Of a DNA stretch of 64,000 nt, positions 5,760-45,240 are shown one piece after another. Positions within the stretch are counted from its first letter, which is position 1. Every line of letters begins with the position of its first letter. Made by a program: the position numbers and the translations under genes. Origin of the DNA: Pseudoflavonifractor sp. Lineage in GTDB: Bacteria; Bacillota; Clostridia; Oscillospirales; Oscillospiraceae. The notes under the pieces were generated by a model. The model ran no database searches and was not told the origin of the DNA. It saw nothing but the letters and a program-made list of their open reading frames with translations. The DNA is taken from contig NZ_JBMNPX010000010.1 of assembly GCF_050943825.1 (NCBI RefSeq), positions 7,771 to 71,770 on the forward strand. The letters are read 5' to 3'.

Positions 5760-7088
5760 ATGAAAAAAGCGAAAAAAGGCTTTCTCGGCTGGTACATGGT
5801 CATTCTGGCCAGCCTGATCACCACCTTCTCCGGCAACTTCGGCAGCAACGCCCAGGGCGTGGCCAACACACTGATGATGACGAGCCCGGAAAACACCGTA
5901 ACCCAGGTGGCGTATGGACTCTCATGGACCATTACCCAGATTGTGGCCGCGTTGGGCGGCCTGCTGATGGGCTCCTTCGTTGACAGATTCGGCGCAAAGA
6001 AAATGTTTATTGTGGGCAGCCTTCTGTCCATTCTCTCCGGCTTTGTGCTGGTGCAGTTCCAGGCGGGCAGCTCCCTGATGTTCCTGTTCAACTACGGCTT
6101 TGTGGTGGCGCTGAGCTACCAGTGCGTGTCCTTCGTGACCACCCAGTCGGTTGTCAGCAACTGGCTCCAGAAGCGCAGAGGCACCGGCGGCGCCATCGTC
6201 AACACCGGAACCGTTATCGCCGGTATTATTACCGCACCTATCGTGACCTGGCTCATCAACTCCGTCGGCAACGGCAACTGGAAGTATGGCTACTACTACT
6301 TCGGCGCTGCCAGCATTATCGGCCTGATTCTCTCCTTCTTCATCATTAACAAGCCTTCCGATGTGGGGCAGTATCCCGACGGCGTGGAGCCTGGCCGGGA
6401 TGCCGGAGACACGCCGAAGAAAGGACAGGCGGCAGCGGCCGTAAGCAGGGTGTTCAAAAATGTGCTGCCTGAAAATCACTACACCTTTAAGCAGGCGCTG
6501 CGCTCTCCTCTCCTGTGGGCCCTGATTGTCCTCCATGCGTGCTCCCTCTGCCTGTCCAACTATATCATGAACCCCGGCTCCCTGCTCTTTGTCCAGGCCG
6601 GCTTTGCCATGGAGACTGTGTCTACGGTGCTCTCCATCCGCCAGGTGATCCGCCTTCTGTTCCTGGCGTTCCTGATGCGTTACCTGGACAAGATTGAACC
6701 CGTTAAGCTCCTTACCTTTACCTGTGCCCTGGCCGGTGTGTGCTACCTGGTCTCCGCCAACCCCACCAGCTACTGGCAGATTCTGGTGTTTTACGCCGGC
6801 GGCAGCATTGTGATGTCCGCCCAGATGGCAATTCCCGGCGTCATGCTGGCGAATATCTTCGGCACGACCAACTTCGGCAAGATTTACGGCGCGTATTTGA
6901 TGGTGGCCACCCTGATTTCTTCCGTCTCTCCCACCATCAGCGGAACGATTGCCCAGAATACCGGATCTTATGTCATGGCAAACTACCTGTGGGCTTCCAT
7001 AGCTGTGGTTGCTCTGGTGGCCGGCCTTGTGAGCATCCGGCTCTTTAAGAAGGAGACCGGAAAGATTCTGGCTGTTACCGGGAAGTAA
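5760..7088 (+). CDS. MFS transporter
   Basis: About 12 hydrophobic segments, MFS motif A GSFVDRFGAK, NWLQKRRG and FGTTNFG. Confidence 0.9.
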   Translation: MKKAKKGFLGWYMVILASLITTFSGNFGSNAQGVANTLMMTSPENTVTQVAYGLSWTITQIVAALGGLLMGSFVDRFGAKKMFIVGSLLSILSGFVLVQFQAGSSLMFLFNYGFVVALSYQCVSFVTTQSVVSNWLQKRRGTGGAIVNTGTVIAGIITAPIVTWLINSVGNGNWKYGYYYFGAASIIGLILSFFIINKPSDVGQYPDGVEPGRDAGDTPKKGQAAAAVSRVFKNVLPENHYTFKQALRSPLLWALIVLHACSLCLSNYIMNPGSLLFVQAGFAMETVSTVLSIRQVIRLLFLAFLMRYLDKIEPVKLLTFTCALAGVCYLVSANPTSYWQILVFYAGGSIVMSAQMAIPGVMLANIFGTTNFGKIYGAYLMVATLISSVSPTISGTIAQNTGSYVMANYLWASIAVVALVAGLVSIRLFKKETGKILAVTGK

Positions 7089-42508: not shown

Positions 42509-44149
42509 ATGAAAATTACCGACATATTGAGTCTGTTGGGCGGTCTGGCCCTGTTCCTCCACGGAATGCAGATGATGAGCTCCGGCCTGGAGGCCGCCGC
42601 GGGCAACCGCATGAAGAGCATCCTGGAGAAGCTCACCTCCAACCGCCTGCTGGGCGTGCTGGTGGGCGCGGTCATCACCGCCGTCATCCAGTCCTCCTCC
42701 GCCACCACGGTCATGGTGGTGGGCTTCGTCAACTCGGGCATGATGAACCTGCGCCAGGCCGTGTGGATTATCATGGGCGCCAACATCGGCACCACCATCA
42801 CCGGTCAGCTCATCGCCCTGGACGTAGGCGTACTGGCCCCGCTGCTCGCTTTCCTCGGCATTGCGCCCATGGTGTTCATGAAAAATCCAAAAGTCCACCA
42901 CATCGGCAGCATCCTGGCCGGTCTGGGCATCCTGTTCATCGGCATGGACATGATGAGCGCCGCCATGGAGCCCCTGCGGGATTCCCAGACCTTTATTAAC
43001 CTGGTGTCCACTTTCTCCAACCCCCTGGTGGGCATTCTCACCGGCGCCATTTTCACCGCCATCATCCAGTCCTCCTCTGCGTCGGTGGGCATCCTTCAGG
43101 CCTTGGCCATGAGCGGCGTGGTGACACTGCCTACGGCTGTGTATGTCCTTTTCGGCCAGAACATCGGTACCTGCATCACCGCCGTGCTGGCCGCCATCGG
43201 CACCAGCCGCAATGCCAAGCGCACCACCGTTATCCATCTCTCCTTTAATATTATCGGTACTATCATCTTCACCATTGCCTGTATGTCTACACCTCTGACC
43301 CGCTTTGTCGCGAACCTGACGCCGGACAATGCTGCCGCCCAGATTGCCAACATGCACACCCTCTTCAACGTGGTCACCACCCTGCTGCTCCTGCCTGTGG
43401 GCGGTCATCTGGTCAACCTGGCCATGCACATCCTTCCCGACCGGAAGGAGGAGAAGGAGGAGGGTATGCACCTGCAGTACCTCAAGCCCATCACCGTGGA
43501 CAAGGACCGCTCCATCGCCATCGGTACCTCCGCTATCTACCTCAACCAGATCCGCAGCGAGCTCCACCGCATGCTGGGCAAGGCCCGGGGCAATATCGAC
43601 CTGGCCTTCCAGGCTGTGCTGGAGGTCAAGCCTGAGCTGCTGGAAAAGGCCGAGGAGACCGAGACCTATATCGACTACCTGAACAAGGAGATCTCCCAGT
43701 ATATCTCCAAGGTCATCGCCCACGAGACCAATGAGACCGACTCCGCCGCCGTGTCCGCCTACTTCAAGATTACCGGCAACATCGAGCGCATCGGCGACCA
43801 CGCCGTGAATATCTGTGAGTACAGCACCATGATGGAGAAGAAGGGCATCCATTTCTCCGAGGGCGCCAAGGACGAGCTGCGGGAGATGCGGGACGTGTGC
43901 CTGGAGGCGCTGGACACCCTGGCCGCCGACGCCGACGTGTCCCAGGGCTGGCTCAGCTCCATGGAAAAGCTGGAGCAGCGCATTGACGACATGACCGCAG
44001 AGTTCCGTCAGAACCAGCTGGACCGCATGAAGAGCGGCTCCTGCTCCGACGAGGCCTGCATCCTCTTCTCCGAGCTGCTCACCGACTTTGAGCGTATCGG
44101 CGACCACGCCCTGAACATCGCCCAGGAGCGCACCGCCGCCGCACGGTAA
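42509..44149 (+). CDS. Na+/Pi cotransporter family protein with PhoU-like C-terminal domains
   Basis: QSSSATT, GANIGTT, QSSSASV, GQNIGTC repeats; two LERIGDHA-type PhoU motifs. Confidence 0.93.
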   Translation: MKITDILSLLGGLALFLHGMQMMSSGLEAAAGNRMKSILEKLTSNRLLGVLVGAVITAVIQSSSATTVMVVGFVNSGMMNLRQAVWIIMGANIGTTITGQLIALDVGVLAPLLAFLGIAPMVFMKNPKVHHIGSILAGLGILFIGMDMMSAAMEPLRDSQTFINLVSTFSNPLVGILTGAIFTAIIQSSSASVGILQALAMSGVVTLPTAVYVLFGQNIGTCITAVLAAIGTSRNAKRTTVIHLSFNIIGTIIFTIACMSTPLTRFVANLTPDNAAAQIANMHTLFNVVTTLLLLPVGGHLVNLAMHILPDRKEEKEEGMHLQYLKPITVDKDRSIAIGTSAIYLNQIRSELHRMLGKARGNIDLAFQAVLEVKPELLEKAEETETYIDYLNKEISQYISKVIAHETNETDSAAVSAYFKITGNIERIGDHAVNICEYSTMMEKKGIHFSEGAKDELREMRDVCLEALDTLAADADVSQGWLSSMEKLEQRIDDMTAEFRQNQLDRMKSGSCSDEACILFSELLTDFERIGDHALNIAQERTAAAR

Positions 44150-44158
44150 TACAGCTTT

Positions 44159-44248
44159 CCGCGCCCCACATGGGTGGGGATGTACCGTCGTAATTGATGT
44201 GAAAGTAACCTTCCGTACCGCAAACCCCACAGGAGTGGGGACAACCTG
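44159..44248 (+). CRISPR. Orphan degenerate type I-E-like mini-array (2 repeats, 1 spacer)
   Basis: R1 44159-44187 CCGCG-CCCCAC-ATGG-GTGGGG-ATGTACCG; 32-nt spacer 44188-44219; R2 44220-44248 GCAAA-CCCCAC-AGGA-GTGGGG-ACAACCTG. Period 61 bp. No cas gene in the window. Confidence 0.55.
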
Positions 44249-44293
44249 TTCCGTGCCCCTCAGCCGGGCATGGAGCAGACACACAAAAAACAG

Positions 44294-44332
44294 TCCGGCC
44301 CAGTCCCGAAAGGGACCGGGCCGGATTTTTTT
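44294..44332 (+). terminator. Terminator after the Na/Pi gene and mini-array
   Basis: tccggcccagtccc-GAAA-gggaccgggccgga followed by TTTTTTT. Confidence 0.8.
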
Positions 44333-44362
44333 GCTGTGGGCGGCGGAGACATGGGGCGTCCG

Positions 44363-44827
44363 TCACCTGGGCGGATGGCATTTGGAGCAGGGGGTATAGC
44401 CGCTGGCTTTGGCCTCCTCAAGAGAGATGGGAATCTGGCTCCTGCTGAGGTACTGGCACCCGTCCGAGTGGTACTTCTCACCGGTCCTGGTGACATAGAC
44501 CACTACCTCCACCGGCTCCTCCGAGAGGGTCGTGACAGGGGATTCCGAGACCGGAGCTGTGCTGGGAGAGGGCTCCGGGACCGGGCCGGAAGGAGTGGGA
44601 GAGGGATCCGGCGCCGGGGCAGAAGGACTGGGGGAGACGTCTGACTGGAGCGGAGACGGGTCGGGCTGGTCTGGAGTCAGGGCAGGGGTGCCGGTGGACT
44701 GCACCTGGACGGCGGACGGACCGGCGGGAGACGCGCTGGGGGAGACGGAGACGGTACCGGCAGCGCAGGAACAGAGCAGCACCAGGGAGACGAGCAGGGG
44801 GAGAAGGCGCTTTTTGATGGAATCCAT
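44363..44827 (-). CDS. Probable lipoprotein with a Pro/Ser-rich linker and C-terminal Cys/His metal-binding domain
   Basis: Lipobox LLCSC; VYVTRTGEKYH..C..L...GYTPCSKC; RBS AAGGAGG. Confidence 0.8.
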   Translation of the reverse strand: MDSIKKRLLPLLVSLVLLCSCAAGTVSVSPSASPAGPSAVQVQSTGTPALTPDQPDPSPLQSDVSPSPSAPAPDPSPTPSGPVPEPSPSTAPVSESPVTTLSEEPVEVVVYVTRTGEKYHSDGCQYLSRSQIPISLEEAKASGYTPCSKCHPPR

Positions 44828-44999: not shown

Positions 45000-45090
45000 T
45001 GGCGCAGAAGGAGGGATTTGAACCCTCGCACGGTTTTACCCGCCTACTCCCTTAGCAGGGGAGCCCCTTCGGCCACTTGGGTACTTCTGC
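45000..45090 (-). tRNA. tRNA-Ser (GCT)
   Basis: GCAGAAG/CTTCTGC acceptor stem, CTCCC-CT GCT AA-GGGAG, long variable arm, CCA. Confidence 0.97.
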
Positions 45091-45153: not shown

Positions 45154-45240
45154 TGGCGGAGAGAGTGGGATTCGAACCCACGGCTCTTGCGAGTCACCGG
45201 TTTTCAAGACCGGCTCCTTAAACCACTCGGACATCTCTCC
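45154..45240 (-). tRNA. tRNA-Ser (TGA)
   Basis: GGAGAGA/TCTCTCC acceptor stem, CCGGT-CT TGA AA-ACCGG, long variable arm, CCA. Confidence 0.97.

Follow-up and report, generated by a model that had tools for sequence, protein, structure and literature searches.

Canonical type I-E CRISPR arrays, of the T. thermophilus HB8 and E. coli K-12 type and including those of Pseudoflavonifractor capillosus An827 and Butyricicoccus pullicaecorum, are built of repeats 29 nt long, each with an 8-nt AUGNACCG handle and a hairpin made of a 6-bp CCCCAC/GTGGGG stem and a 4-nt loop; the repeats enclose 32-nt spacers at a period of 61 nt, and the cognate cas3-cse1-cse2-cas7-cas5-cas6e genes are encoded in the same genome. 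Orphan arrays remote from cas loci are also known, among them the second I-E array of E. coli and those recovered in surveys of arrays away from cas, and are presumably served in trans by the effector of the genome. Repeat-like hairpins outside normal arrays, bindable by Cas6 and Cascade subunits, occur as RNA anti-CRISPRs (Racr) or solitary repeat units, which are decoys encoded by phages or plasmids. Small RNAs derived from bacterial 3' UTRs, such as CpxQ and SroC, arise from mRNA tails upstream of the terminator without a promoter of their own; RNase E frees them from the transcript, and Hfq is their partner. Neo-CRISPR loci, reportedly described by Nivala and colleagues in 2018, are two-repeat, one-spacer units at non-CRISPR sites that are said to form by ectopic Cas1-Cas2 integration, with local sequence duplicated into two identical pseudo-repeats. 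Finally, mini-arrays of the CreR/CreA type, including CreTA of Haloarcula, carry two diverged repeat-like sequences around one spacer and are conserved in their lineages; the regulatory mini-arrays described to date lie inside cas loci, between cas3 and cas8, and their spacer matches the cas8 promoter (Shmakov et al. 2023, PMC10120712).

The element analyzed here lies in a 64,000-nt stretch of DNA (hereafter the window; C10:7771-71770, where C denotes a contig and coordinates without a prefix are those of the window) from a Pseudoflavonifractor genome of 3.30 Mb in 36 contigs, 99% complete. It is a genuine two-repeat, one-spacer type I-E CRISPR mini-array (44159-44248, + strand) and an orphan, and its type I-E identity, with the effector encoded in the same genome, is close to certain. 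It belongs to the known class of orphan CRISPR arrays and is unusual in having a single spacer and no leader, in occupying the 3' UTR of a core gene, and in residing in a genome without cas1-cas2. It differs from canonical I-E arrays in its two non-identical repeats, the lack of a leader or promoter, the lack of cas1-cas2, the location of the cas genes on another contig and its 3' UTR placement; and it differs from other orphan arrays, with which it shares its distance from the cas genes, in that its one spacer sits on a 130-nt insertion in the transcription unit of another gene. To our knowledge, no single-spacer array on an insertion inside another gene's transcription unit has been described.

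The first repeat, R1 (44159-44187, + strand), reads CCGCG-CCCCAC-ATGG-GTGGGG-ATGTACCG, with stem arms at 44164-44169 and 44174-44179, an ATGG loop, a degenerate 5' tail (CCGCG) and the 8-nt handle ATGTACCG at 44180-44187. The spacer, TCGTAATTGATGTGAAAGTAACCTTCCGTACC (44188-44219, + strand), is 32 nt long and has a GC content of 41%, compared with 60.8% for the genome. The second repeat, R2 (44220-44248, + strand), reads GCAAA-CCCCAC-AGGA-GTGGGG-ACAACCTG; its stem arms (44225-44230 and 44235-44240) are intact, its loop is AGGA, and its degenerate 3' handle, ACAACCTG, makes it a repeat of the terminal type. The two hairpins start at 44164 and 44225, a period of exactly 61 nt that, together with the 32-nt spacer, gives the regular spacing of type I-E arrays. 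R1 and R2 are identical at 18/29 positions, sharing their stem arms and differing in loops and flanks; the element thus lacks the combination of identical repeats, A+T-rich leader and cas1-cas2, with leader, promoter and cas1 all absent. Rfam CRISPR-DR models gave no match to the region at E <= 10, and the Rfam scan near the mini-array recovered two tRNA genes only (45003-45090 and 45157-45240, - strand; 57 and 62 bits), which lie about 0.7-1 kb downstream of it.

Comparison with related systems ties both repeats to a defined I-E repeat family. Relatives of the Cas6e of this genome, at 72-80% identity, are encoded by P. capillosus An827 and two B. pullicaecorum genomes; arrays directly follow cas6e in all three (26, 40 and 4 repeats, respectively), and their consensus repeat is GTAAACCCCAC-N4-GTGGGGATG[A/G]ACCG. 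A covariance model built from 24 distinct repeats, all from foreign arrays (An827 and B. pullicaecorum), placed nine of its ten best matches in this genome in three mini-arrays on contigs C1, C9 and C10, with R1 ranking third (20 bits, model positions 6-29) and R2 sixth. When applied to the three related genomes, this model recovered only the single cas-adjacent array, so that a spread over three loci is a peculiarity of the genome analyzed here. The genes of the I-E lineage of An827 and B. pullicaecorum are unusually arranged, in that cas6e and cas1 lie on either side of the array. In the 26-repeat array of An827 the older repeats are mutated mainly in the loop.

Scoring of the genome with CCCCAC-N4-GTGGGG-ATGAACCG, with up to four mismatches allowed, gave good matches in the same three places only, each with a 60-62-nt period: a cas-adjacent mini-array of three diverged repeats and two spacers (C1:79343-79495, + strand); a mini-array of three repeats and two 31-nt spacers (C9:56002-56150, - strand); and the two-repeat, one-spacer unit in the window. 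Looser hairpins of the form CCCCAC-N3-6-GTGGGG number nine in 3.3 Mb and exact CCCCAC-N4-GTGGGG hairpins six; five of these six lie in the three loci with 60-62-nt periodicity, which excludes a chance origin of the hairpin pair. In the seven well-preserved repeats of the genome, mismatches number 3/84 in the stems and 20/35 in the tails, and the loops bear no relation to one another. Five further candidate repeats (C12:42257, C1:495331, C7:28208, C19:39796 and C2:198178) lack a partner unit about 61 nt away and resemble coding sequence, and we consider them chance matches. A conventional CRISPR array was not found in the genome, where the only periodic 18-mers belong to 60-nt tandem coding repeats.

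These scans bear on whether the element is of CRISPR origin at all. The preliminary description had named recurrence of the hairpin as a REP element or an IS200/IS605 end as an outcome that would count against it; the nine sites in the genome, family-like only in three periodic clusters, rule out REP elements, IS200/IS605 ends and chance palindromes. We give next to no credence to a reading of the element as a non-CRISPR palindrome (REP-like, an IS200/IS605 end or a chance pair) or as an RNA anti-CRISPR decoy of the phage type: the presence of G+C-rich palindromes is all that favors it, and the element agrees with the I-E repeat family of this genome in stem, handle, tail and spacing, at a core-chromosome locus. 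The flanks of the mini-array are core genes common to congeners (the Na/Pi transporter, the tRNAs and a radical SAM gene), and phage or plasmid genes were not found near the locus. The suggestion of a Racr-like decoy accordingly fails on two counts, as the mini-array is not on a phage or plasmid and keeps a full guide layout in the UTR of a core chromosomal gene.

The effector that would serve the mini-array is encoded in trans. A cas3-cse1-cse2-cas7-cas5-cas6e operon lies on contig C1, just upstream of the C1 repeats, and its genes have near full-length Pfam matches; Cas3 contains the HD, helicase and C-terminal domains, and cas3 and cse1 abut. Alignment of Cas6e to the Cse3 proteins of solved Cascade/Cse3 structures shows that it retains two features of T. 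thermophilus Cse3: near the N terminus the ..QQLH26.. motif, whose His26 is catalytic in the T. thermophilus enzyme, and near the C terminus a glycine-rich loop, GxGxxKxxGxG. Cas1 could not be detected in any part of the genome, which is 99% complete. The I-E system here has thus lost cas1-cas2 and is left with three short diverged arrays, beside cas6e, on C9 and on C10. Of what the preliminary description proposed, the points on the identity and setting of the element are supported: a type I-E-like mini-array, here seen as two repeats, a 32-nt spacer and 61-nt spacing with stem and handle matching the cas-adjacent repeats; an orphan, on contig C10 with the cas genes on contig C1; a Cascade encoded elsewhere in the genome, found as the C1 operon with its matching repeat stem and handle; and a processing-competent orientation in a 3' UTR, on the + strand between the Na/Pi stop codon and its terminator. 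The lack of any I-E system, which it had listed as a contrary outcome, does not apply, as I-E cas genes are present in the same genome.

The cas-adjacent mini-array begins 7 nt past the cas6e stop codon, lacks the ~95-nt A+T-rich leader seen in relatives, and is followed by a serine recombinase gene at the place where B. pullicaecorum has cas1-cas2. The operon lies within a larger intervening element: the spore-coat gene cotJC (Mn_catalase family) is split by 16.4 kb (C1:65015-81434), with its N-terminal part (profile positions 1-150) at C1:81435-81842 and its C-terminal part (positions 148-200) at C1:64853-65014, both on the - strand. Within the intervening DNA are polyamine-synthesis genes and the whole I-E cas operon together with its mini-array, and the gene for a large serine recombinase occupies one end. 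In four congeners the DNA that interrupts cotJC at this point is only ~9 kb long, and in three the gene is uninterrupted; the 16.4-kb element looks like a skin-like sporulation intervening element that gained a ~7-kb I-E cassette in this species. The C9 mini-array has an A+T-rich leader-like stretch upstream and its own terminator downstream; the segment around it, ~660 bp long and specific to this species, lies upstream of the gene for a Crp-family regulator, and the alignment to congeners stops at the segment edge.

The host transcription unit of the C10 mini-array is that of a Na+/Pi cotransporter of 546 aa with two PhoU domains (42509-44149, + strand; Pfam Na_Pi_cotrans 2.9e-66, PhoU 1e-24), a core gene present in all congeners. 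Its TAA stop codon occupies 44147-44149, R1 begins after a further 9 nt on the same strand, and a bidirectional intrinsic terminator (44294-44332; 14-bp hairpin 44294-44325, T-run 44326-44332), identified by terminator scan and RNA folding, follows 45 nt past R2. This terminator also serves the convergent downstream gene and is older than the insertion, being kept in congeners without it. The terminator scan found none between the Na/Pi gene and the mini-array, and promoter prediction over 43900-44500 found no sigma-70-like promoter; the mini-array has neither a leader nor a promoter of its own. Given this lack of a promoter and its position upstream of the terminator, the mini-array would be transcribed as the tail of the Na/Pi mRNA. 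Folded as RNA, the whole 3' UTR (z-score -6.7) forms both repeat hairpins, the terminator and a 13-bp hairpin that lacks a T-run (44246-44278, + strand) and that closes the insertion at its 3' side.

This leaderless single-spacer array belongs to the genome's own type I-E system, and we propose that it probably yields a functional guide by the following route: read-through of the Na/Pi gene would carry the mini-array, upstream of the terminator, into the mRNA tail; Cas6e would bind each CCCCAC-N4-GTGGGG hairpin and cut just past its 3' end, after G44179 and G44240; and the released 61-nt crRNA (44180-44240, + strand) would join Cascade. The mature crRNA predicted from type I-E processing comprises the 5' handle AUGUACCG, the 32-nt guide and the 3' hairpin GCAAACCCCACAGGAGUGGGG. 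Once loaded, the guide would direct Cas3 interference against a foreign element, and the Na/Pi mRNA would be left ending in the R1 hairpin. The proposed RNA resembles CpxQ and SroC in coming from an mRNA tail upstream of a terminator with no promoter of its own, and differs from them in that the predicted nuclease is Cas6e and the predicted partner Cascade.

The distribution of repeat mutations is consistent with such processing. Compared with the family consensus, R1 is mismatched at 5/5 tail positions, 0/12 stem positions and 1/8 handle positions, and the handle mismatch falls at a position that is variable (A or G) among functional relatives; R2 matches at 4/5 tail positions and 12/12 stem positions and has four handle mismatches. 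Nine of the 11 departures from consensus in the two repeats fall in the 13 positions outside the predicted mature crRNA, namely the tail of R1 and the handle of R2 (P = 1.3e-5, hypergeometric), a skew that could in part reflect the normal decay of array ends or the cut point of an inserted fragment. Terminal repeats of related arrays lose the 3' handle, as R2 has done, and the R1 tail could be the breakpoint of the inserted fragment. The Cse3 of T. thermophilus binds a 21-nt hairpin, with cleavage after G21; it requires little of the sequence 3' of that site and still works when the 5' tail is mutated (PMC3683919). The conservation pattern of the mini-array fits these requirements.

Cleavage between the stop codon and the terminator would necessarily change the 3' end of the Na/Pi mRNA, and such reshaping might itself be the purpose of the element, with the terminator removed, the hairpin capped by Cas6e and expression of the transporter tied to Cas6e levels. 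In keeping with a cap, Cse3 remains bound to its product hairpin (PMC3683919). A single hairpin would suffice for this role, however; the precise 32-nt spacing and the preservation of the 5' handle and of the R2 tail are what a guide would show and a cleavage site would not, and congeners do without the element. We hold this reading to be highly improbable, and an effect on the mRNA 3' end is more likely a by-product of processing.

The mini-array arrived in the 3' UTR as part of a species-specific insertion of 130 nt (44150-44279, + strand), which comprises, in order, 9 nt, R1, the spacer, R2 and the 13-bp hairpin. In an alignment with seven congeners, the stop codon joins CACACAAAAAAC and the terminator directly, with no insertion. 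The insertion is absent from 10/10 other species of the genus, as is Cas6e, and this species alone has both; metagenome contigs encoding a transporter with the 'ERTAAAR' C-terminus all carry the insertion. A transposon or MITE origin of the 130 nt was rejected, as no target-site duplication, terminal inverted repeats or second copy of the insertion were seen. Ectopic integration by Cas1-Cas2, which would make the unit a neo-CRISPR locus, was likewise rejected: the site in congeners contains no hairpin or pseudo-repeat, all 130 nt are new, and the two repeats are non-identical. The insertion flanks show no similarity to the leaders or trailers of related arrays beyond the repeats. The 3' end of cas6e, GCCGGTAACAG (C1:79328-79338), and the 3' end of the Na/Pi gene in congeners, CCCGGTAACAC, at the position corresponding to 44141-44152, have in common a stretch of 9 nt, CCGGTAACA, that spans the stop codon in each; it could be the microhomology by which a cas6e-proximal piece of array was moved, a post hoc comparison that may reflect chance.

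Our proposal has one main rival, and a serious one: the mini-array may be an inert relic, the distal end of a former array brought into the 3' UTR by illegitimate recombination, too young to have decayed and conferring nothing, whether or not Cas6e cuts it. We regard this as possible and somewhat doubtful. The loss of cas1, cas2 and the leader of the cas-adjacent array points to a decaying system, and An827 decays likewise, with a degenerate array and no cas1 in its genome (an apparent short remnant of the cas1 start follows its array). Against a relic stand the intact cas genes and the state of the repeats, in which both stems are perfect and the handle matches at 7/8 positions while adjacent dispensable positions are saturated with changes.

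Variation among strains bears on both readings. Among seven close strain variants the 90-nt array shows no change, and 5/5 variable sites of the insertion fall in its 40 flanking nt (P = 0.002), a contrast that counts against a relic; local diversity is low, at ~2 sites per 100 nt, so that only about two changes would be expected in the array among these variants. Two of the five variable sites lie in the 13-bp hairpin, where one change keeps pairing as G-U and the other breaks it.

In a divergent lineage (L034), 10/90 array positions differ from this genome (11%), all ten by transitions. Three changes fall in the spacer, at positions 13, 19 and 20; three fall in the stems, all in 5' arms, and all retain pairing as G-U, which is possible only in the + strand RNA; and one alters the last handle base, which is also variable in active arrays. 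The pairing-compatible stem changes speak against a relic, and the three altered spacer positions speak for one. The divergence of the array (11%) compares with 12% at nearby third codon positions and ~10% in the flanks, i.e. it equals the local neutral level in this single divergent comparison, and hence there is no measurable purifying selection on the spacer. In L034, therefore, the hairpin geometry survives without measurable constraint on the spacer, and the overall evidence for selection on the mini-array is weak.

A protospacer for the C10 spacer was not found in INPHARED phages, PLSDB plasmids, IMG/VR, JGI metagenomes or 400 family genomes, in searches that included every-sixth-base variants and the L034 alleles; this would suit a relic. 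The other four spacers of the genome had no match in IMG/VR. The 38 spacers of the active B. pullicaecorum array also had no match in the phage collection, from which no PAM could be derived; as spacers of an active array behave in the same way, the missing C10 protospacer is weak evidence.

A chromosomal target would allow a different role, that of a CreR/CreA-type regulatory RNA, in which Cascade loaded with the guide binds a partly matching chromosomal site and represses without cleavage. The best non-self match of the C10 spacer, 21/27 scored positions including spacer positions 1-8, lies at C2:235556-235587 and overlaps both the start codon and the ribosome-binding site of a gene for an aminotransferase; 0/40 shuffled spacers reached 21, and the mini-array is fixed in the species, which also favors such a role. 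Five spacers were tested, however, so that the excess is marginal; the site is mid-operon rather than at a promoter, and its flanking triplet, TGC, is not among the known PAMs of type I-E systems. In the region upstream of cas3-cas6e the C10 spacer matches at most 8/10 seed positions, with no match of at least 10 nt with a PAM there or near the host gene; and for all spacers of the genome no convincing seed-plus-PAM match was found upstream of the cas genes or near the Na/Pi gene. CreR/CreA mini-arrays lie in cas loci, and their spacers match the cas8 or toxin promoter over at least 10 nt beside a PAM, neither of which holds here; cas3 and cse1 abut in this genome, in contrast to the described regulatory units, which lie between cas3 and cas8 (PMC10120712). 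The CreA/CreR-type guide put forward in the preliminary description was therefore not borne out, as the mini-array is not at the cas locus and partial matches of its spacer to promoters, those of cas genes included, were not significant, and we consider regulation of this type very unlikely.

Spacer 2 of the C9 mini-array matches 10/11 bases (TCaTAGCAGCC) over the ribosome-binding site and start codon of cas3 (positions 6337-6347 of the piece C1:66000-84000). We rejected this site as a target: about one such match is expected by chance in the scanned regions, the mismatch falls at seed position 3, and the flanking triplet, TCC, is not a PAM.

Should the predicted 61-nt RNA be made and be loaded into Cascade, it would show that a housekeeping mRNA tail can supply a guide that has neither leader nor promoter, and that an interference-only I-E system can work from few dispersed fixed guides long after the loss of cas1-cas2. 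We further consider, as an unlikely extension of our proposal, that the genome harbors a 'hard-wired' I-E system without adaptation, in which a few guides are scattered in host transcription units, this one being a 3'-UTR-derived crRNA released from every Na/Pi mRNA and kept by selection as a standing guard against one recurrent element or for control of a chromosomal site through a partial match. The mini-array also bears on the origin and persistence of orphan arrays, and units of this kind are missed by array finders that need three or more near-identical repeats. Even if only a relic, it would provide a cleanly dated case of CRISPR decay, a 130-nt insertion in one species set against ten congeners without it.

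Strain variation is uneven along the host gene. The middle of the Na/Pi gene (42800-43400) has 12-32 variable sites per 100 nt among strains, compared with 1-4 per 100 nt at the gene ends and in the 3' UTR, a pattern that suggests mosaic recombination within the gene.
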